A stretch of DNA of 64,000 bases, from NCBI RefSeq assembly GCF_001677475.2, contig NZ_CP015229.1; one strand, written 5' to 3'. A program made the translations under genes and the position numbers. This DNA comes from Escherichia coli. GTDB lineage: Bacteria > Pseudomonadota > Gammaproteobacteria > Enterobacterales > Enterobacteriaceae. The notes below the pieces were generated by a model. That model was not told where the DNA came from. It made no database searches and worked only from the letters and a program-made list of their open reading frames with translations. This document shows, piece after piece, positions 23,349 through 63,834 of this stretch (the first letter of the stretch is position 1; every line of letters begins with the position of its first letter).

Positions 23349-24539
23349 ATGCTTGACGCTCAAACCATCGCTACAGTAAAAGCCACCATCCCTTTACTGG
23401 TGGAAACGGGGCCAAAGTTAACCGCCCATTTCTACGACCGTATGTTTACTCATAACCCAGAACTCAAAGAAATTTTTAACATGAGTAACCAGCGTAATGG
23501 CGATCAACGTGAAGCCCTGTTTAACGCCATTGCCGCCTACGCCAGTAATATTGAAAACCTGCCTGCGCTGCTGCCAGCCGTAGAAAAAATCGCTCAGAAG
23601 CACACCAGCTTCCAGATCAAACCGGAACAGTACAACATCGTCGGTGAACACCTGTTGGCGACCCTGGACGAAATGTTCAGCCCGGGGCAGGAAGTGCTGG
23701 ACGCGTGGGGTAAAGCCTATGGCGTACTGGCTAATGTATTTATCAATCGCGAGGCGGAAATCTATAACGAAAACGCCAGCAAAGCCGGTGGCTGGGAAGG
23801 TACTCGCGATTTCCGCATTGTGGCTAAAACACCGCGCAGCGCGCTTATCACCAGCTTCGAACTGGAGCCGGTCGACGGTGGCGCAGTGGCAGAATACCGT
23901 CCGGGGCAATATCTCGGCGTCTGGCTGAAGCCGGAAGGTTTCCCGCATCAGGAAATTCGTCAGTACTCTTTAACTCGCAAACCGGATGGCAAAGGCTATC
24001 GTATTGCGGTGAAACGCGAAGAGGGTGGGCAGGTATCCAACTGGCTGCACAATCACGCCAATGTTGGCGATGTCGTGAAACTGGTCGCTCCGGCAGGTGA
24101 TTTCTTTATGGCTGTGGCGGATGACACGCCGGTGACGTTAATCTCTGCTGGTGTCGGCCAGACGCCAATGCTGGCAATGCTCGACACACTGGCAAAAGCA
24201 GGCCACACAGCACAAGTGAACTGGTTCCATGCGGCAGAAAATGGCGATGTTCACGCCTTTGCCGATGAAGTTAAGGAACTGGGGCAGTCACTGCCGCGCT
24301 TTACCGCGCACACCTGGTATCGCCAGCCGAGCGAAGCCGATCGCGCTAAAGGTCAGTTTGATAGCGAAGGTCTGATGGATTTGAGCAAACTGGAAGGTAC
24401 GTTCAGCGATCCGACAATGCAGTTCTATCTCTGCGGCCCGGTTGGCTTCATGCAGTTTGCCGCGAAACAATTAGTGGACCTGGGCGTGAAACAGGAAAAC
24501 ATTCATTACGAATGCTTTGGCCCGCATAAGGTGCTGTGA
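23349..24539 (+). CDS. hmp: Flavohaemoglobin (NO dioxygenase)
   Basis: ORF trimmed to [10 protein letters not shown]... (396 aa); globin domain plus FAD/NAD reductase domain. Confidence 0.93.
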
Positions 24540-24544
24540 TTTGA

Positions 24545-24572
24545 TGTTGCCGGATGGAAACATCCGGCAACC
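24545..24572. terminator. Bidirectional hairpin terminator between convergent hmp and glnB
   Basis: GTTGCCGGATG-GAAA-CATCCGGCAAC perfect inverted repeat. Confidence 0.6.
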
Positions 24573-24583
24573 CTTGACGCGGT

Positions 24584-24958
<375 letters not shown>

Positions 24959-24982
24959 CTAAACGTAACACATAACGCCAAT

Positions 24983-26317
24983 TCATTCCTTGAAATCGTT
25001 TGCATCCAGCTCGTGTCGGGAAAGCAGTTTATAAAATTCTGTCCGGTTGCGCCCCGCCATTCTCGCCGCGTGGGTGACGTTGCCTTTGGTGATTTGCAGC
25101 AGCTTACGCAAATAATTGAGTTCAAACTGATTACGTGCCTCAACAAAGGTTGGCAGCGCCGTATTTTCACCCTCCAGCGCCTGCTCCACCAGCGCATCAC
25201 TAATCACCGGAGATGAGGTCAGCGCCACGCACTGTTCAATCACGTTGACCAACTGGCGCACATTACCCGGCCAGCTCGCGGTCATCAGGCGTTTCATCGC
25301 ATCGGTAGAGAATGCGCGGACAAACGGTTTATGTCGCTCTGCCGCCTGGCGCAACAGGTGATTTGCCAGTAGCGGAATGTCTTCTGTGCGCTCTGCCAGA
25401 GCCGGAATTTTCAGGCTGACAACGTTGAGGCGGTAATAGAGATCTTCACGGAATTCCCCGCGCGCCATCGCTTTTGGCAGGTCGCGGTGAGTGGCGGAAA
25501 TAATCCGCACGTCGATATCAATATCGCGGTTACTGCCCAGCGGGCGCACTTTACGCTCCTGCAACACGCGCAGCAGTTTGACCTGCAACGGTGTGGGCAT
25601 ATCGCCAATCTCATCGAGAAATAGCGTACCGCCTTCCGCCGCCTGGAATAAACCTTCGCGATTGCTGACAGCACCAGTAAACGCGCCACGCGCATGACCA
25701 AACAGCTCCGACTCCAGCAATTGCTCGGGCAATGCGCCACAGTTAATAGCAATAAATGGTTTGCTGTTGCGCGGGCTGGCGTTGTGGATAGCCTGGGCGA
25801 AAATCTCTTTCCCGGTGCCGCTCTGGCCATTAATCAGCACGCTGACGTCTGATTGCGCCACCAGCCGCGCCTGTTCCAGCAAACGCAGCATCAGCGGGCT
25901 GCGGGTGACAATCGCCTCGCGCCAGCGTTCGTCGGTAGCAGGCGCGGATTGTTCCAGCGCATCGTCAATTGCCTGATATAGCGCGTCTTTATCGACAGGC
26001 TTGGTGAGGAAACTAAAAACGCCCTGCTGTGTTGCAGCAACGGCATCGGGGATAGAACCATGCGCAGTAAGAATAATTACTGGCATTCCAGGCTGCACTT
26101 TCTGGATTTCAGCAAACAGCTGCATACCGTCCATTTCATCCATCCGCAGGTCGCTGATGACTAAATCTACTTTTTCGCGATTCAGTACCCGTAATCCTTC
26201 AGCGCCACTCTCCGCCGTGACCACGCTGTAGCCTTCGCTGGTCAGGCGCAGGCCAAGCAGTTTCAGCAATCCCGGATCGTCATCGACCAATAATAAATGC
26301 GCAGGTTTATGGCTCAT
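24983..26317 (-). CDS. glrR: Sigma54-dependent response regulator GlrR (YfhA/QseF)
   Basis: ORF trimmed to [14 protein letters not shown]... (444 aa); receiver domain, AAA+ sigma54-activator domain with GAFTGA, C-terminal HTH. Confidence 0.9.
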
Positions 26318-27020
26318 CAGGAGTGACCTCATCGGTGGATGGCGCGGGCTTTTCACCCTCGTGCGGCGTATCCGGCGAGAAATTTCCAGCCGGTTTGCGG
26401 GTCGAGAGCTGGCGTTCAATATCGGTCAGGTTTTCCAGCTTGCGGGTGGTGAGTTCCAGTTGCTGCTGTAGAACGTGATGTTGCTGGCGCAAAGTATCCA
26501 GCTCGCTGTCGCTGGACTGCTGGAGTTTGCTGTAGCGTTGGCGCTCTTCCGCCAGTTGCAGTTGCAGCGCCTGACCGTCGCGCCAGAGTTGATACAGTGG
26601 GCGAACCTGTGCCGGGATCTCGGTACTTAACACATCAATACGCGCGACCAGCTGGCGGCGCTCATACGGCGTAATTTTGGCATCGGCGAGCAAAATCCCT
26701 TGTTTAAAGGTATTTTGCCAGCTGCCGTCATCATATTGGCGGGCTTGCTGACGCGACTGCGCAGGCATTAAACGATCAGCACAATCCATCGCCCGCAGCC
26801 AGTAAAGCGGATTGGTTTCGGTTGATTTACCTTGCAGCGCCCAGATGTCGCTACATTCAGTTGAAAGATAGTCAGCCAGTTGATAAACCGGAATTTTTTC
26901 TTCTGCTGGCGTATCAATAGCTGGCTTATTGTGACTCTGCACGCAACCCAGCAATGCCAGACATGGCAGCCCTGCCAGCCATAGCCGTCGGGGCAATAAT
27001 CGTTGAAAAATGTGTCGCAT
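26307..27020 (-). CDS. qseG: Outer-membrane lipoprotein GlrP/QseG (YfhG)
   Basis: About 237 aa; signal peptide with lipobox LLGC; lies between glrK and glrR. Confidence 0.8.
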   Translation of the reverse strand: MRHIFQRLLPRRLWLAGLPCLALLGCVQSHNKPAIDTPAEEKIPVYQLADYLSTECSDIWALQGKSTETNPLYWLRAMDCADRLMPAQSRQQARQYDDGSWQNTFKQGILLADAKITPYERRQLVARIDVLSTEIPAQVRPLYQLWRDGQALQLQLAEERQRYSKLQQSSDSELDTLRQQHHVLQQQLELTTRKLENLTDIERQLSTRKPAGNFSPDTPHEGEKPAPSTDEVTPDEP

Positions 27021-27184
27021 ATTCACCAGACTTAAAGCCTATCCCAGTGGGCGTAGTTGTTGCAGACAGTTTGGACATGGACAGCGCGGAGAAACCGGAG
27101 CGTACACGTCGTACGTGAGGATTTCGAGCACTGCCCAGGGCCAAACTGACAAATAAAATAGCCTGATGGGATAGGCTGTTAGCA

Positions 27185-28612
27185 TTATTTCGTGTTTTTC
27201 GACGACGGCAATTCAATGCGGAAGCAAACGTCTTGCCCGCTCTCGTCGACCAGATACAGTTCCCCTTGCATACGGCGAATACAATCCCTGGCAATGCTTA
27301 ATCCCAGACCGCTGCCCTTCACCGCCCCTTTTCGCTGGTGGCTTCCCTGAAAAAAGGGTTCGAAGATCATGGCGCGTTCCTCTTGCGGAATGGGCGTGCC
27401 TGTATTGATGACATCAATATAAACCCGCGCACCATGTAAACTGCTACGAAGGCAAATGTTACCGGATTCAACCCCGTAGTGCACCGCATTGGAGTAAAGA
27501 TTATCCAGTACGCTCATCAGCAGCATTGGCTCCGCCAGGCAAGCTGTTGCTTTGAGATCGACGTCGGTATGCATCATTTTAGCCCGTGCGGGCAGGCTAT
27601 GAGCAGAAACCACTGTCTCCACCAGCGGTGCTAACTCAACATTCTCCAGTTCCACCGCACTGTCCGCCTGTTTACGGTTGTAATCAAGCAGTTGTTCGAT
27701 CAGTTTTTGCAAATTGCGGCTGCTGCTATCAAGAATGCTCACCACCTCTTTTTGCTCTGGCGTAAGCGTCCCGACAACCTGATCAGCCAGTAATTCAGTG
27801 CCCTCGCGCATACTCGCCAGTGGCGTTTTTAATTCATGAGATAAATGTCTTAAAAATTGATGGCGTTGGGATTCCAGCCATGACAGGCGCTCACTTAACC
27901 AAAGAATACGTTGCCCAACCGAGCGTAACTCGCTCGGTCCACTGAACGAAACGCTATTGCCCAGAGAACGCCCTTCCCCCAACCGGTTGATCATCCTCTC
28001 GATATTTTTCACCGGACCAATAATCATCCGCGTGAAAAGCAGTACCATTACCAGACTCACCAGAAATAGCACCAGCGATTGCCAACCAAAATATTGCCCA
28101 CGTTCGGCGATTTCACGCTGAAGTTGCTGCCCACGAGAGAACACCACTGTGCGCGTGGCCTGCACCATTTCGGTATTGGCACTGGCAAAGGCTTCAAGAC
28201 GCGCAGCGGCGGCAGCATCGGGACCACTGTTGTTACACTGAAGTTGAGCCAGATTGTTCAAATCCTGACGCAATGCCTGGTAAAGTTTATCGTCTGGCAG
28301 TACGCCTGCGTGGGCATCGAGCATTTCGCTGTAACGCTTGCGCTGGCTTTGATAAACCTTCGCAAGCGTAGGGTCATCCAGCACGCAATACTGACGGTAG
28401 CTACGCTCCATCTCAAGCGCCGCGTTGGTCATTGCTTCGCTGCGCCGGGCATCGATAAGCGTGGTGCGGTTGACCAGCGCCGCCTGGTCGCTAAGCGCAT
28501 TCAGGCTTTGCCAGGCTTGCCATGCCAGCACCAACAGGGGTAGCAGAATCAGCAAAAATGCCAGCATTACCAGTTGTCGTAATGAGCGGGGAAAAACGGG
28601 CCAGCGTTTCAA
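27185..28612 (-). CDS. glrK: Sensor histidine kinase GlrK (YfhK/QseE)
   Basis: ORF trimmed to a TTG start (LKRWPVF..., 475 aa); HAMP and HisKA (H-box HELKTPL) plus ATPase domain. Confidence 0.85.
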   Translation of the reverse strand: MKRWPVFPRSLRQLVMLAFLLILLPLLVLAWQAWQSLNALSDQAALVNRTTLIDARRSEAMTNAALEMERSYRQYCVLDDPTLAKVYQSQRKRYSEMLDAHAGVLPDDKLYQALRQDLNNLAQLQCNNSGPDAAAAARLEAFASANTEMVQATRTVVFSRGQQLQREIAERGQYFGWQSLVLFLVSLVMVLLFTRMIIGPVKNIERMINRLGEGRSLGNSVSFSGPSELRSVGQRILWLSERLSWLESQRHQFLRHLSHELKTPLASMREGTELLADQVVGTLTPEQKEVVSILDSSSRNLQKLIEQLLDYNRKQADSAVELENVELAPLVETVVSAHSLPARAKMMHTDVDLKATACLAEPMLLMSVLDNLYSNAVHYGVESGNICLRSSLHGARVYIDVINTGTPIPQEERAMIFEPFFQGSHQRKGAVKGSGLGLSIARDCIRRMQGELYLVDESGQDVCFRIELPSSKNTK

Positions 28613-28669
28613 GGTGTTACTCTCGTCAGACGCGAATAGCCTGATGCTAACCGAGGGGAAGTTCAGATA

Positions 28670-28853
28670 CAACAAAGCCGGGAATTACCCGGCTTTGTTA
28701 TGGAATAAGGCGGTGCCTAACTCGACGTTTCGCCCGATGGTTGATATAGCTACGCTGATATCAGAAGTTGGACGGCAGGCACCTTGTTGTGCGTCATTCG
28801 AATTTTATGTAGCACGTCCCGAAGGGGCTGACATAAGTCGGTGAATGAGCCAC
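28670..28853 (-). ncRNA. glmY: GlmY small RNA
   Basis: Minus-strand read AGUGGCUCAUUCACCGACUUAUGUCAGCCCCUUCGGGACGUGC... ending in terminator hairpin GCCGGGUAAUUCCCGGC plus U-tract; recognised as GlmY. Confidence 0.8.
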
Positions 28854-28865
28854 TGCTTACTATTA

Positions 28866-28881
28866 TGCAGTAACTGTGCCA
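28866..28881 (-). promoter_or_regulatory. Sigma54 (-24/-12) promoter of glmY
   Basis: Minus-strand TGGCAC-AGTTA-CTGCA about 12 nt upstream of the GlmY 5' end. Confidence 0.7.
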
Positions 28882-28970
28882 ATAAAGAAAATAGTTTGGT
28901 AACGTACTGATTATACGTTGTTTTGAGGGATTTATGGCTTCTTCGCTATTTGAATGTAAATCAGCCACTG

Positions 28971-28988
28971 TGTCGCTAAAAAGAGACA
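28971..28988. promoter_or_regulatory. GlrR-type binding site 1 (TGTC-N10-GACA)
   Basis: TGTCGCTAAAAAGAGACA. Confidence 0.6.
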
Positions 28989-29033
28989 ACTTAAGATAAA
29001 CTTATTAGATTACAATAAAATCAATCATTTAAG

Positions 29034-29051
29034 TGTCGCCAGAAAGCGACA
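29034..29051. promoter_or_regulatory. GlrR-type binding site 2 (TGTC-N10-GACA)
   Basis: TGTCGCCAGAAAGCGACA. Confidence 0.6.
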
Positions 29052-29066
29052 CGGTAAACCACCCAT

Positions 29067-29084
29067 TGTCGTGATTTACAGACA
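29067..29084. promoter_or_regulatory. GlrR-type binding site 3 (TGTC-N10-GACA)
   Basis: TGTCGTGATTTACAGACA. Confidence 0.6.
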
Positions 29085-29086
29085 CA

Positions 29087-29112
29087 AAAAAGCTCCCTGA
29101 GTTGGGAGCTTA
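29087..29112 (-). terminator. Rho-independent terminator of purL
   Basis: Minus-strand GCUCCCAACUCAGGGAGC followed by UUUUUU. Confidence 0.6.
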
Positions 29113-29117
29113 TAATA

Positions 29118-29165
29118 GCGGTTGGTATTTAATGCCGGATGCGGCGTGAATGCCTCATCCGGGCT
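29118..29165. repeat. REP element
   Basis: GCCGGATGCGGCGTGAATGCCTCATCCGGGC palindrome just 3' of purL. Confidence 0.5.
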
Positions 29166-29187
29166 GCAAAACCAATGGGCTGACGAC

Positions 29188-32100
29188 TTACCCCAACTGC
29201 TTACGTGCATTGCGGAAAATGCGCATCCATGGGCCATCCTCGCCCCAGTTTTCCGGATGCCAGGAGTTGCTGACAGTACGGAAAACACGTTCCGGGTGCG
29301 GCATCATAATGGTGACTCGACCGCTTTCAGTCGTGACCGCCGTAATACCGTTCGGAGAACCGTTCGGGTTAGCCGGGTAGGTTTCAGTGACTTTGCCGAA
29401 GTTATCGACATAGCGCAGTGCCACCAGCCCTTTGCTTTCCAGTGCCGCCAGATGCGCCGCATCACGCACTTCCACGCGCCCTTCACCATGAGAGACAGCA
29501 ATCGGCATTTGCGAGCCCACCATCCCCTGCAACAGCAGCGACGGGCTTTGGGTCACTTCAACCAGGCTGAAACGCGCTTCAAAGCGATCGGAGGTATTGC
29601 GCACAAAACGTGGCCACAACTCACTACCTGGGATCAGTTCACGCAGATTAGACATCATCTGGCAACCGTTACATACCCCCAGCGCCAGCGTTTGCGAACG
29701 GTGGAAGAAGGTTGCAAACTCATCGCGTACACGGTCATTGAACAGGATAGACTTCGCCCAACCTTCACCGGCACCCAGCACATCACCGTAGGAGAAACCA
29801 CCGCACGCGACCAGGGCGTGGAAATCCTCCAGTCCCGTGCGTCCAGTCAGCAGGTCGCTCATATGCACGTCGATAGCATCAAAGCCCGCACGGTGGAAAG
29901 CTGCCGCCATTTCAACATGCGAGTTCACGCCCTGCTCACGCAGTACGGCAACTTTCGGACGTGCGCCAGTGGCAATATACGGTGCTGCCACATCTTCGTT
30001 GATATCGAACGACAGTTTTACATTCAGGCCCGGATCGGCGTCGTTAGATTTCGCCTGATGCTCCTGATCGGCACACTCCGGGTTGTCACGCAGGCGCTGC
30101 ATCTGCCAGGTAGTTTCTGCCCACCAGACACGCAACGTAGTGCGGCTTTCGCTGAATACAGTCTGCCCGTTGGCGGTAATCACAAAACGGTCACCGGAAA
30201 CCGCCTGGCCAACATAATGGACGCAATCAGCAAGCCCATGCTTTGCCAGTACCGCTTCAACTGCTTCACGGTCAGCGGCTCGAACCTGAATCACCGCCCC
30301 CAGTTCTTCGTTAAACAGCGCCGCCAGGCGATCGTCACCCAGTGTGGCGATATTCGCTTCAATGCCGCAATGACCGGCAAACGCCATTTCCGCCAGCGTT
30401 ACCAGCAGGCCGCCATCAGAGCGGTCGTGATACGCCAGCAGCTTACGCTGTGCAACCAGCGCCTGAATCGCGTCATAGAAGCCTTTCAGTTGCGCGACGT
30501 CGCGTACATCTGCCGGTTTGTCGCCAAGCTGACGATAAACCTGCGCCAGCGCCGTTGCGCCCAGCGCGTTATTGCCTTTGCCCAAATCAATCAGCAGCAG
30601 TGCGTTATCTTCGGTAGAAAGCTGCGGCGTGATGGTGTGACGTACATCTTCCACGCGGGCAAATGCGGAAATCACCAGCGACAGCGGCGACGTCATTTCG
30701 CGCTCTTCGTTACCTTCCTGCCAGCGGGTTTTCATCGACATAGAGTCTTTACCCACCGGGATCGTCAGGCCCAGCGCCGGACAAAGCTCTTCGCCCACAG
30801 CTTTAACGGCTTCATACAGGCCCGCATCTTCGCCTGGATGACCTGCCGCTGCCATCCAGTTCGCGGAAAGTTTAATGCGTTTGATATCGCCAATCTGTGT
30901 TGCGGCAATATTGGTTAACGCTTCACCGACCGCCAGACGGGCAGATGCGGCGAAATCCAGCAGCGCAACCGGCGCACGCTCGCCAATTGCCATCGCTTCG
31001 CCGTAGTAGCTATCGAGGCTGGCGGTAGTGACCGCGCAGTTAGCGACCGGCACCTGCCACGGACCAACCATCTGATCGCGCGCCACCATGCCGGTTACGC
31101 TGCGGTCACCGATGGTCACCAGGAAAGTTTTCTCTGCCACAGTCGGCAGATGCAGTACGCGTTTCACCGCGTCAGCAATGGTGATCCCTTCACGGGCCAG
31201 CGCATCGCCCTTCGCTTTCAGCGTTTGTACATCGCGGGTCATTTTCGGCGTTTTACCAAGCAGCACGTCCAGCGGCAGATCGATTGGCTGATTATCAAAA
31301 TGACGATCGTGCAGAGAAAGATGCAGTTCTTCAGTCGCTTCACCAATCACCGCGTAGGGTGCGCGTTCACGCTTACACAGTTCGTCAAACAGCGGTAACT
31401 GATCGGCAGCAACCGCCAGCACGTAGCGTTCCTGGGATTCGTTACACCAGATTTCCAGCGGGCTCATGCCCGGTTCGTCGCTCAGAATATCGCGCAGTTC
31501 GAATTTACCGCCGCGCCCGCCGTCGCTCACCAGTTCCGGCATGGCGTTAGAAAGACCGCCTGCGCCAACGTCGTGGATAAACAGGATTGGGTTGGCATCA
31601 CCAAGCTGCCAGCAACGGTCGATCACTTCCTGGCAGCGACGCTCCATCTCCGGGTTGTCGCGCTGTACGGAAGCAAAGTCGAGGTCCGCATCAGACTGAC
31701 CAGATGCCATGGAAGACGCCGCGCCGCCGCCAAGACCGATGTTCATTGCCGGGCCGCCGAGAACGACCAGCTTCGCACCAACGTTGATCTCGCCTTTTTG
31801 TACGTGATCGGCGCGAATGTTGCCGATCCCACCCGCCAGCATGATCGGTTTGTGATAACCGCGCAGCTCTTCGCCATTGTGGCTGTTCACTTTTTCTTCA
31901 TAAGTACGGAAGTAGCCGTTCAGTGCCGGGCGACCAAATTCGTTGTTAAACGCCGCGCCGCCCAGCGGGCCTTCGGTCATGATGTCCAGCGCGGTGACAA
32001 TGCGCTCAGGCTTACCGAAATCTTCTTCCCACGGCTGTTCAAAGCCCGGAATACGCAAGTTGGATACGGAGAAACCGACCAGACCGGCTTTCGGCTTTGC

Positions 32101-33075
32101 GCCACGCCCGGTGGCACCTTCATCGCGGATTTCACCGCCGGAACCGGTCGCCGCGCCCGGCCACGGAGAAATCGCCGTCGGGTGGTTGTGGGTTTCGACT
32201 TTCATCAGAATATGCGCCGGTTCCTGATGGAAATCGTAGCGGCCCGTTTCGTGGTCAGCAAAGTAGCGGCCCACTTCAGACCCTTCCATGACGGCGGCGT
32301 TATCTTTATAAGCAGAGAGAACGTGATCCGGCGTAGTTTCGAAGGTGTTTTTGATCATCTTGAACAGCGATTTCGGCTGCTGTTCACCGTCGATAATCCA
32401 GTCGGCGTTAAAAATTTTGTGGCGGCAGTGCTCAGAGTTCGCCTGAGCGAACATATACAGCTCAATGTCGTTCGGGTTACGACCAAGCTTTGTGAAAGCA
32501 TCCTGCAGATAGTCGATTTCATCTTCCGCCAATGCCAGGCCAAGGCGCAGGTTAGCGTCGATTAGCGCCTGACGGCCCTGCCCCAGCAAATCTACGCTGG
32601 TGACCGGAGTCGGTTGATGGTGTGCAAACAGCTGCTCTGCATCATCTAAAGCAAAAAAGACCGTTTCCATCATGCGGTCGTGCAGTTCAGCGGTAACCTG
32701 CTGCCATTGTTCATTGGTCAGCGTACCGGCTTCTATATAGTAAGCCACGCCGCGCTCAAGGCGGTTAACCTGTTGCAGCCCGCAGTTATGGGCAATATCG
32801 GTCGCTTTCGAAGACCAGGGAGAGATGGTGCCAGGACGCGGGGTCACCAGCAGGAGTTTGCCTTGCGGGGCGTGGCTGGCGAGTGCCGGGCCATATTTCA
32901 GCAGGCGTTCAAGTTGTGCGTGCTCATCATCGTTTAACGGCGCATTGAGGTCAGCAAAATGGACATACTCGGCGTAAATATTGTGAACCGGGAGCCTGGC
33001 AGCCTGAAAACGTGCCAGCAGTTTGTTGATTCGGAATGCCGACAATGCAGGCGAACCACGCAGAATTTCCATCAT
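29188..33075 (-). CDS. purL: Phosphoribosylformylglycinamidine synthase
   Basis: ORF trimmed to [20 protein letters not shown]... (1295 aa); FGAM synthase with C-terminal glutaminase domain. Confidence 0.95.
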
Positions 33076-33152
33076 AAGTCTCTCGTCTTCTAAGCTTTCG
33101 GTGTACCCAAGGGGGGGGAAACGGGCGTCATTATAAAGAATCTGATGCGCTG

Positions 33153-33168
33153 ACGAAACCGTTTGCGT
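33153..33168. promoter_or_regulatory. PurR box upstream of purL
   Basis: ACGAAACCGTTTGCGT (reverse complement ACGCAAACGGTTTCGT) is a near-perfect 16-bp PurR palindrome. Confidence 0.55.
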
Positions 33169-33333
33169 GGAAATAAAATCACCATCGAGAATTAGCAACG
33201 CGTGCCGCCAATGGCTGTAATAAGTTGCCATCTGGCGCAGGTTTACGCAAAATGCCGCTCATTTATGAGTAAACCTTTCACTATTATTACGTTTTTTCAA
33301 GCTGGGACGCGCACGACACAGAGAATTAACTAA

Positions 33334-35435
<2,102 letters not shown>

Positions 35436-38052: not shown

Positions 38053-38128
38053 CGTTGGAATCGTGTGCTGCACAAAATTAAAGTTGTAAAGTGAAAACCC
38101 CCGTTCCTTACCAGTTCGGGGGTTTTAC
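38053..38128 (+). ncRNA. ohsC: Candidate OhsC antisense sRNA (antitoxin of shoB)
   Basis: Plus-strand TTGGAATCGTGTGCTGCAC (38055-38073) matches plus-strand 37806-37824 in the shoB 5' leader at 18 of 19 positions, so a plus-strand transcript would base-pair with the minus-strand shoB mRNA; CATAAT -10-like hexamer at 38041-38046; hairpin at 38094-38126. Boundaries inferred. Confidence 0.45.
38094..38126. terminator. Bidirectional terminator hairpin (acpS operon end and candidate ohsC end)
   Basis: AAAACCCCCG-loop-CGGGGGTTTT with A-tract and T-tract flanks. Confidence 0.6.
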
Positions 38129-38151
38129 TTTATAAAGAGAACGGTATTTTT

Positions 38152-40134: not shown

Positions 40135-41747
<1,613 letters not shown>

Positions 41748-41945
41748 TCAGCACACGAAACAGACCTGATATACATGGCTCTGCTAACTGCTTCGCTGCA
41801 GTTTCAGTTTAGCGGTATATGGGGACCAACGCTGTTTCGTGTGCCGTGGCAACCTGGAGGTGCCAACCTTAAACTTCGGGGGAATATTCTATACACAACG
41901 ACGGGGGATGTCGTTAGCCACGGGAGATTTATCTCATAAATAATT

Positions 41946-42978: not shown

Positions 42979-44778
<1,800 letters not shown>

Positions 44779-44975
44779 AAAGTATGATTATTGTGCCTTA
44801 ATGCCCGGTTAACCAGGCTTTTAGAAGTCGCTGTTCTGAGCTTAACGTCTGTATTAATAGAAACGCCGCATTCTACACTACAACATTGAGGCGAGGAAAT
44901 GTTCATACCGTATGGATTGTGGTATCTGGAAACGTCCTCGCATTTGTTATGCAAAATGCAACAAAGCCAGTGAAA

Positions 44976-45455
44976 TCACTGGCTCGCGTCTTCCGAAGAT
45001 GTTTCAAATCGCACAAGGCCAGGCGGCAATGCCACGCTTAAGATGATCGGTTGCCATTCAGACCGGGCAGCAAACTTTCGAGAGCAGCCACGTGCAATCA
45101 GGAATCCACCAACGCCACCGAGAATCGCACCGCATAATGCTGCAATATCTGAAGCAAAGAGTAGCTGAAATAGTGAAGCGATGAGGAATAGTCCCACCAA
45201 CGGCGACATATAAACCAGTAATGCGGAGCTAAGCAGGCTGCCTTCGGCGATTCCTAATTCTACTTTTTGCCCCGGCACTAACGGCTCATCACAGGGTACG
45301 ACAATGGTATGCGTGGTTTGCGGGCCAAGTTTATTCAACACGCGGCTACCGCAACCGGCGCGTGAAGCGCAGCTGCTGCATGAGGCTTTAACATCACAAC
45401 TGACCAGCGCCTGCCCGTTTTGCCAGGAGACGACGGTAGCCCACTCTTTGATCAT
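44976..45455 (-). CDS. rseC: SoxR-reducing system protein RseC
   Basis: 159 aa. Confidence 0.9.
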   Translation of the reverse strand: MIKEWATVVSWQNGQALVSCDVKASCSSCASRAGCGSRVLNKLGPQTTHTIVVPCDEPLVPGQKVELGIAEGSLLSSALLVYMSPLVGLFLIASLFQLLFASDIAALCGAILGGVGGFLIARGCSRKFAARSEWQPIILSVALPPGLVRFETSSEDASQ

Positions 45456-46408
45456 TGCGCTGCCCCGAACTTAATATTCTCGGCAATGCGTTTCGCCGTT
45501 TGCGGCGGCAGTTCACCGACAATGGTGATTTCGGCGTTATCACGTACGCTTGTACTGACGGTTCTGCGTCCGGTGCGCAACATCTGATCGGTGCTCGATG
45601 GCGTAGCGCGGTTAACGTTTACCGAGAAGCTGAATAATCCGTCGGAATAGAGACGTGATTCGATAGGCATGTTGTCCATCGTCGGTAGCGGACGTCGACT
45701 ACTGGAAACTTCGCTAAAACCCTGTGGCAACCAGGTTGGCGTCCAGCTGAATTTAGCTTTTTCACCTACAGGAACAGAAAGCAACGGCGGCAAATTTGCC
45801 TTCGCCAGCGTCTGCATACTGCTGCTGATATCCTGATTGACGTTAAAAGCAATCACGCGAAATTGTTCCAGCGTTTCACCATCGCGATCAAGGAGATCAA
45901 CCCTCATCGGTAATTTCGATTCAGTGTCCATCCACACGATGTAGCTGTAGCGTGTACCATCTCGGGCAACCACGCGAATGACTTCGCAAAGACGATCAGC
46001 AATACGCGTGCGCCCGACGGAGATAAAGTCGTAGTAAGGAGAAAGGCGTTTGAAATCGGTATAGATGAGCGATGGCAGAGAATCAACAATGTAATCGCCA
46101 TTAAGCGTGAACGGTTCAAGTCCCGGTTCAAAATAGCTGATTTCATTGCCGCGCTGTACCACTTCCCGGCGCGGGCCATCCATTTGCAACAATTGTGCAA
46201 GAGGACGGTTATCGAGGCGTGCATGTCGATAACGCAGAGACTCAACACCCTGTTTATTGATGCTGATGAATGACAGCTCGTAATTCAGTGACTGACTGGC
46301 CAGGTTCATCTGCTGTAATAACGCCCCGGACGCGGGAGTGGCCGAGGCGTTAGCAGAGAATAACAGGCTACCTGTCACTAATGACATGGCAAACCAAAGT
46401 TGCTTCAT
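45452..46408 (-). CDS. rseB: Sigma-E regulatory protein RseB
   Basis: 318 aa with signal peptide. Confidence 0.92.
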   Translation of the reverse strand: MKQLWFAMSLVTGSLLFSANASATPASGALLQQMNLASQSLNYELSFISINKQGVESLRYRHARLDNRPLAQLLQMDGPRREVVQRGNEISYFEPGLEPFTLNGDYIVDSLPSLIYTDFKRLSPYYDFISVGRTRIADRLCEVIRVVARDGTRYSYIVWMDTESKLPMRVDLLDRDGETLEQFRVIAFNVNQDISSSMQTLAKANLPPLLSVPVGEKAKFSWTPTWLPQGFSEVSSSRRPLPTMDNMPIESRLYSDGLFSFSVNVNRATPSSTDQMLRTGRRTVSTSVRDNAEITIVGELPPQTAKRIAENIKFGAAQ

Positions 46409-47776: not shown

Positions 47777-48064
47777 GTAACGCATCTGTTTTTGTTTGTC
47801 ATGCTGTAGACGGATCATTATCTATCATTATAAGTCTACAGAATCTGAACATCGCATTATCTGTGTAGAAATGCCCATTTAACTGCCTGAAGAGTAACCC
47901 AACGGCCTTTTTATTTCACCACCTAATCCTCCACCAGCCAGTAACTTCTCTTTTTCTCGCCGCCCTGAGTCAGCGTGTTTAGCCACTGTAACAAATATTA
48001 AAATAGCAGGTGTTTAATCGCACAACATGATGCTATGCTGACCAAACCGTGTTTAGTAAATTAA

Positions 48065-50418
<2,354 letters not shown>

Positions 50419-63714: not shown

Positions 63715-63834
63715 ATGCCTGGCAGTTCCCTACTCTCGCATGGGGAGACCCCACACTACCATCGGCGCTACGGCGTTTCACTTCTGAGTTCGGCATGGGG
63801 TCAGGTGGGACCACCGCGCTACGGCCGCCAGGCA
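63715..63834 (-). rRNA. rrfG: 5S ribosomal RNA
   Basis: Minus-strand read UGCCUGGCGGCCGUAGCGCGGUGGUCCCACCUGACCCCAUGCCGAACUCAGAAGUGAAACGCCGUAGCGCCGAUGGUAGUGUGGGGUCUCCCCAUGCGAGAGUAGGGAACUGCCAGGCAU is the 120-nt E. coli 5S sequence; operon identity (rrnG) inferred from kgtP adjacency. Confidence 0.9.

Follow-up and report, generated by a model that had tools for sequence, protein, structure and literature searches.

The small RNA GlmY stands at the top of the GlmY/GlmZ/RapZ cascade, which balances glucosamine-6-phosphate and hence cell-envelope synthesis, and it also feeds virulence regulation in EHEC. Its best-described representative is that of Escherichia coli K-12, whose promoter architecture was worked out by Göpel et al. 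in 2011 (PMC3045617; reviewed in PMC4152352), with the overlapping promoters and the GlrR and IHF sites also described by Reichenbach et al. in 2009, as cited in PMC3045617. The response regulator GlrR binds three TGTC-N10-GACA motifs (activator sites, ABS) more than 100 bp upstream of K-12 glmY and activates a sigma-54 promoter. The published evidence includes EMSA gel shifts with GlrR and mutational experiments; the promoter cannot do without ABS2 or ABS3, whereas ABS1 is dispensable (PMC3045617). IHF, with sites on both sides of ABS3, is required by the sigma-54 promoter; together, the ABS, sigma-54, and IHF elements yield about four- to five-fold activation (PMC3045617). A sigma-70 promoter uses the same start base, and its characterized −10 box, the hexamer CATAAT, overlaps the −12 element; rpoN and the activator are required once this box is mutated, and the wild-type promoter retains sigma-70 activity (PMC3045617). 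QseG is an essential cofactor of the kinase (PMC6075780). K-12 GlmY occurs as a 184-nt primary and a 148-nt processed form, and a mechanism has been described in which the processed form acts as a decoy for RapZ (PMC4152352); RapZ has a role in sensing GlcN6P (PMC7073468).

We describe here the corresponding locus in a 64,000-nucleotide stretch of E. coli DNA (NCBI RefSeq assembly GCF_001677475.2, contig NZ_CP015229.1; hereafter the window). The region is the well-studied E. coli glmY gene with its complete published control region and is thus already known. A locus with identical functional elements was established experimentally years ago, and the present one opens no new question. Its use is as an example: a complete noncoding control module can be recovered by a reader of sequence alone, and glmY and its enhancer go unmarked in E. 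coli genomes annotated routinely with PGAP.

Sequence analysis

The minus strand of 28400–29300 was read directly, and the whole window was scanned against Rfam. The presence, position, integrity, and conservation of the elements, and the identity of the neighboring genes, were taken from the sequence here. For the comparison with relatives, species-representative genomes were scanned with a pattern anchored in the RNA only, which gave 120 glmY loci from about 40 genera of Enterobacterales; upstream features were counted on the 117 to 119 loci with 300 nt of upstream sequence, unless another number is given.

The GlmY RNA

The covariance-model scan proposed in the earlier note matched the minus strand at 28854–28707 to Rfam GlmY_tke1 (RF00128) with 147.1 bits against a gathering score of 33 (E = 8e-33), and the alignment covers the full model (positions 1 to 163 of 163). 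The K-12 ncRNA glmY (b4441, 184 nt) aligned to window positions 28854–28671 on the minus strand with a single substitution. The features of the RNA are as follows.

28671–28854, minus strand: glmY primary transcript, 184 nt, with stem-loop 1, central stem-loop 2, and terminator (K-12 b4441 alignment; fold z = −5.5)
28707–28854, minus strand: the part of GlmY under Rfam GlmY_tke1, 148 nt (147.1 bits, E = 8e-33)
28671–28699, minus strand: intrinsic terminator hairpin of glmY, with a 12-bp stem, a 5-nt loop, and a U-rich tail lying partly within the stem (MFE and centroid structures)

The folding energy of the 184-nt RNA was −64.2 kcal/mol, compared with −44.2 ± 3.6 in shuffled sequences (z = −5.5), and none of 200 shuffles folded as well. 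Two stem-loop domains and the 12-bp terminator hairpin (28699–28671) make up the predicted fold. The hairpin was not picked up by a simple terminator scan of 28500–29300, because its T-run is interrupted. The sole substitution relative to K-12 is at +54 (U here, A in K-12), which in the predicted fold falls inside an unpaired five-base interior loop of stem-loop 1, a stretch that is variable in the Rfam consensus. When 119 distinct GlmY sequences were aligned, compensatory double changes were seen at five pairs of stem-loops 1 and 2 (UA/AU, UA/AU, AU/CG, UA/CG, and AU/CG); many other stem columns were fixed in advance by the search pattern, and their invariance is uninformative.

With a full-model score, two stem-loops followed by a terminator, and a place upstream of glrK/qseE, the RNA is a member of the GlmY family, in agreement with the structured, terminated minus-strand sRNA that had been read between glrK and purL. 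The segment covered by the Rfam model has the same length as the published 3′-processed active form, and we infer that these 148 nt correspond to processed GlmY. By analogy with K-12 GlmY, from which it differs by 1 nt, the RNA is predicted to act as a RapZ-binding decoy that protects GlmZ and carries no glmS-pairing sequence.

Further RNA features of the window also scored above their Rfam gathering scores.

38054–38131, plus strand: ohsC antitoxin sRNA (95 bits)
41663–41877, minus strand: rncO leader of the rnc operon (259 bits)
44660–45491, plus strand: AsrC, antisense to rseC (507 bits)
63717–63832, minus strand: 5S rRNA at the end of the window

Promoter core

Two overlapping promoter elements precede the RNA; positions are relative to the K-12 start (+1).

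28866–28881, minus strand: sigma-54 promoter core TGGCACAGTTACTGCA, −27 to −12 (consensus scan; GG-N10-GC in 119/119 loci)
28862–28867, minus strand: CATAAT hexamer, the sigma-70 −10 box named in PMC3045617, −13 to −8, overlapping the −12 element

The sigma-54 element had been called textbook; it does lie directly upstream of the RNA, at −27 to −12, and it carries one mismatch to TGGCAC-N5-TTGCA. Matches to this 16-mer are no more frequent in the window than expected (2 sites against 2.46 at up to one mismatch, 42 against 43 at up to two), so the bare motif is uninformative without positional context. As a bare motif the core is not above chance, and its weight comes from its position and conservation: GG-N10-GC was found at the expected position in all 119 related loci and the 16-mer, at up to two mismatches, in 118. 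Chimaeribacter californicus (L056) is the sole locus with more than two mismatches (TGGCATACATTGTGCT), and its GG-N10-GC is intact.

A YATAAT −10 box was found in 55 of 117 loci, a partial distribution that fits the published split between sigma-54-only and dual-promoter species (PMC3045617). In the window, a generic sigma-70 promoter scan of 28500–29300 found no promoter; the published one goes undetected because its −35 region (TTTCTT as read from the sequence, a poor match) is too poor for the rule. The window has G at −2 where K-12 has C. The same 71 nt over −42 to +29, with G at −2, are 100% identical in 2,761 of 5,425 complete E. coli genomes, about half, and a lineage-specific promoter change was accordingly rejected as a reading of this base.

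Enhancer and IHF sites

The control region upstream of the core contains the following sites.

28900–28912, minus strand: proximal IHF consensus AATCAGTACGTTA, −58 to −46, between ABS3 and the promoter (exact match to WATCARNNNNTTR; same position in related loci)
28971–28988, no strand assigned: GlrR/QseF site ABS3, TGTCTCTTTTTAGCGACA, −134 to −117 (exact pattern, identical to K-12)
29019–29031, plus strand: distal IHF consensus AATCAATCATTTA, −177 to −165, between ABS2 and ABS3 (exact consensus match)
29034–29051, no strand assigned: GlrR/QseF site ABS2, TGTCGCTTTCTGGCGACA, −197 to −180 (exact pattern, identical to K-12)
29067–29084, no strand assigned: GlrR/QseF site ABS1, TGTCTGTAAATCACGACA, −230 to −213 (exact pattern, identical to K-12)

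These are the only three exact TGTC-N10-GACA sites in 64 kb, where about 0.75 are expected per window. The earlier note had described three evenly arranged palindromes 100 to 220 bp further upstream. All three are present and exact at the coordinates given; their start-to-start spacing is uneven (33 bp from ABS1 to ABS2, 63 bp from ABS2 to ABS3), and the distances are corrected to 117 to 230 bp from +1, equal to 90 to 203 bp from the sigma-54 element. The extent assigned to the module, 28670–29084, holds, its two limits being the glmY terminator and the far end of the distal ABS.

Three sites at up to one mismatch each were found in 101 of 119 related loci. Among these 101, ABS1 and ABS2 are 33 bp apart in 72 and 31 to 32 bp apart in the remainder, and ABS2 and ABS3 are 63 bp apart in 96. 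The N10 spacers differ freely among loci. Upstream of glmY there are 9.5 ABS per kb, compared with 0.27 per kb in the rest of the loci. The exact IHF consensus has only six matches in the whole window, two of which flank ABS3, and the distal one sits at the most frequent IHF position among related loci (n = 35). The spacer between ABS2 and ABS3 has several substitutions relative to K-12 and retains the IHF consensus.

A sigma-54 core in its proper position, activator sites more than 100 bp away, and an IHF site between them give the sequence of a sigma-54 enhancer-dependent promoter. Dependence on rpoN and an AAA+ activator is predicted for it from the identical K-12 promoter, and binding of GlrR-P at ABS1 to ABS3 from the K-12 sites of identical sequence. 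The three sites with conserved geometry, together with the cognate GlrR encoded in the window, place glmY among GlrR/QseF regulon targets.

Gene neighborhood

Gene order is purL-glmY-glrK-qseG-glrR-glnB, all on the minus strand.

29090–29111, minus strand: purL terminator hairpin, the upstream boundary of the control region (terminator scan)
27185–28612, minus strand: glrK/qseE, sensor kinase gene, 475 aa, TTG start (ORF and aligned E. coli records)
26307–27020, minus strand: qseG, lipoprotein gene (NF007997, 358 bits, cutoff 234)
24983–26317, minus strand: glrR/qseF, gene of the sigma-54 enhancer-binding response regulator that recognizes ABS1 to ABS3 (NF011695, 982 bits, cutoff 763)

The glrK start lies 242 bp downstream of the glmY +1 (28854 to 28612). 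The glrK product has generic histidine-kinase matches only in NCBIfam, and its name is the one that RefSeq gives to the gene in the aligned E. coli records. GlrR has the Pfam domains Response_reg, Sigma54_activat, and AAA_lid_14 and a weak HTH_8 (E = 0.026), and its gene is 2.5 kb from the three palindromes. The genes rpoN, ihfA/B, rapZ, and glmZ are outside the window.

The complete sRNA control module adjoining its two-component system that had been claimed is borne out by Rfam, the K-12 annotation, the neighboring genes, and the literature; the overlapping sigma-70 promoter, IHF, and 3′ processing had been left out. The evidence supports the view that this earlier reading was incomplete rather than wrong. 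It had also stated that the module is absent from ORF-based descriptions, which is true of the PGAP-annotated E. coli records (L001 = NZ_CP021726.1, H19 to H23), where no feature lies under glmY, and not of the MG1655 reference, which annotates the gene as b4441. The absence of glmY from PGAP records reflects incomplete annotation and not a difference in biology.

Among related loci, glrK is downstream of glmY on the same strand in 98 of 102, and purL is at most 900 bp upstream in 86 of 101. For about 15% (L003, L009, L030, L034, L035, L066, L084, and others), the fetched stretch contained no purL or had it more than 900 bp upstream of glmY; an insertion of additional DNA may have separated purL from the enhancer in Photorhabdus, Yersinia, Hafnia, and certain others. 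One record, L113 (NZ_SZPQ01000010.1, titled Martelella alba), bears an alphaproteobacterial genus name yet has a typical enterobacterial glmY locus; it is probably mislabeled or its taxon misassigned.

The spacer between glmY and glrK (28613–28670) is the expected place of an independent sigma-70 promoter of qseEGF, with a start at about 28637. In K-12, this operon has its own sigma-70 promoter directly downstream of glmY, starting 25 bp before the start codon, and read-through makes no contribution (PMC6075780). A by-eye −10 candidate, TAGCAT, lies at about 28649–28644, and its −35 region would overlap the glmY terminator tail. On the other side, the purL-glmY spacer has an 18-bp insertion relative to K-12 at 29138–29155, within a REP-like palindrome (GCCGGATG...CATCCGGC); the insertion is shared with E. 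coli Combat11I9, is located upstream of the purL terminator, and is not part of the glmY control region.

Proposed mechanism and alternative readings

The locus is almost certainly best explained as glmY with its complete published control region, working through the following cascade, and none of the results speaks against this. Assisted by QseG, the kinase GlrK (QseE) would phosphorylate GlrR (QseF), and GlrR-P would bind the three TGTC-N10-GACA sites at −134, −197, and −230. IHF at the sites flanking ABS3 would bend the DNA so that the GlrR oligomer touches sigma-54 RNA polymerase at −24/−12, and ATP hydrolysis would open the promoter. Basal expression would come from the weak sigma-70 promoter, with CATAAT over the −12 element and the same start base. 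The 184-nt transcript would stop at the intrinsic terminator (28671) and be trimmed to about 148 nt. Processed GlmY, a mimic of GlmZ, would sequester the RNase E adaptor RapZ, GlmZ would be spared, and translation of glmS would be activated. Binding, dependence on rpoN, glrR, and IHF, processing, and the role as RapZ decoy are carried over from the K-12 literature, where the elements are identical. Owing to the overlapping sigma-70 promoter, full dependence on rpoN and glrR is not expected in Escherichia, which weakens the proposal of the earlier note that expression independent of rpoN and glrR would speak against the module.

It is very unlikely that the substitutions in the ABS2-ABS3 spacer and around the distal IHF site shift the balance between sigma-54 and sigma-70 away from that of K-12, making this locus a natural intermediate in the proposed transition from one to the other; nothing in the sequence argues for such a shift.

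In another reading, the sigma-54/GlrR module would be a conserved relic, and the overlapping sigma-70 promoter would account for essentially all glmY expression here, a change that glmZ has undergone in Escherichia and Klebsiella. The CATAAT box is present, and the literature sees Escherichia in transition to sigma-70 and notes that an rpoN mutant still expresses glmY substantially (PMC3045617, PMC4152352). Yet the three ABS, GG-N10-GC, and the two IHF consensus sites are all intact, each identical or equivalent to its counterpart in K-12, where they give the about four- to five-fold activation (PMC3045617); the intact glrK-qseG-glrR operon adjoins, the −35 region (TTTCTT) is poor, and the sigma-70 scan returned no promoter. 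We consider this reading very improbable.

That the palindromes are a chance cluster, or sites of a regulator other than GlrR, can be put aside almost entirely: each specifies only 8 bases, and a review mentions a putative QseB site in the same promoter (PMC4152352), but 1,000 first-order Markov simulations placed two sites within 150 bp twice and three never (0/1,000), the sites keep their position and 33/63-bp spacing from genus to genus despite variable N10 spacers, and published GlrR EMSA and mutational data exist (PMC3045617). There is next to no chance that the region encodes a small protein instead of or besides the RNA, such as the listed 79-aa minus-strand ORF with a TTG start (28750–28989), which runs across the promoter into the 5′ part of GlmY, as this ORF starts upstream of the transcription start, stop codons interrupt all three frames of GlmY +1 to +150 in the window, no frame is open in more than 28 of the 120 relatives, and base pairs rather than codons are conserved. 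This ORF was rejected as a small-protein gene, with no conserved reading frame through GlmY.

Comparison with known systems

The reading of the locus as glmY under GlrR, sigma-54, and sigma-70 control can be set against other described promoters. The glmY/glmZ sigma-54 promoters of Yersinia, Salmonella, and other Enterobacterales have three ABS, two IHF sites, and the core in the same geometry as the window; those of the Yersinia type are strictly sigma-54 dependent and, unlike the window, lack the overlapping sigma-70 −10 box (PMC3045617). For Proteus mirabilis, cotranscription of glmY with qseEGF is reported (PMC8745638), whereas K-12 qseEGF uses its own sigma-70 promoter (PMC6075780).

The other QseF-activated sigma-54 promoter of E. 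coli, rpoE P2, shares activator and sigma factor with glmY and overlaps the sigma-70 promoter rpoE P3, comparable to the overlap at glmY (PMC6075780, PMC6358824); its target is a sigma factor gene, whereas that of the glmY promoter is an sRNA. The upstream region of rpoE is in the window and contained only relaxed TGT-N12-ACA motifs and no sigma-54 core at up to two mismatches. Such relaxed motifs number 18 in the window, four of them in or near the rpoE-nadB intergenic region (pattern scan).

47976–47993, strand not given: relaxed TGT-N12-ACA motif near rpoE-nadB
48050–48067, strand not given: relaxed TGT-N12-ACA motif near rpoE-nadB
48240–48257, strand not given: relaxed TGT-N12-ACA motif near rpoE-nadB
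48378–48395, strand not given: relaxed TGT-N12-ACA motif near rpoE-nadB

The window thus probably holds both known QseF targets, rpoE P2 being without a located core.

The 600-bp glmY region was found in 5,425 of 5,426 complete E. coli genomes at 90 to 99% identity. Over the 10 kb at 24000–34000, the best identity to any of the 5,426 genomes was 98.0%, with all genomes in a 95 to 99% band, and the window looks like the product of an Escherichia lineage with sparse coverage in the complete genomes.

The closest described system remains glmY of E. coli K-12 (formerly sroF/tke1), which has the same gene order, +1, and 184-nt length. The differences between the two loci are the bases at +54 and −2, several substitutions in the spacers between the ABS, and the 18-bp purL-proximal insertion, and none touches a defined element: the two loci share an identical sigma-54 core, CATAAT −10 box, and ABS1 to ABS3 and have their IHF consensus sites at the same positions.
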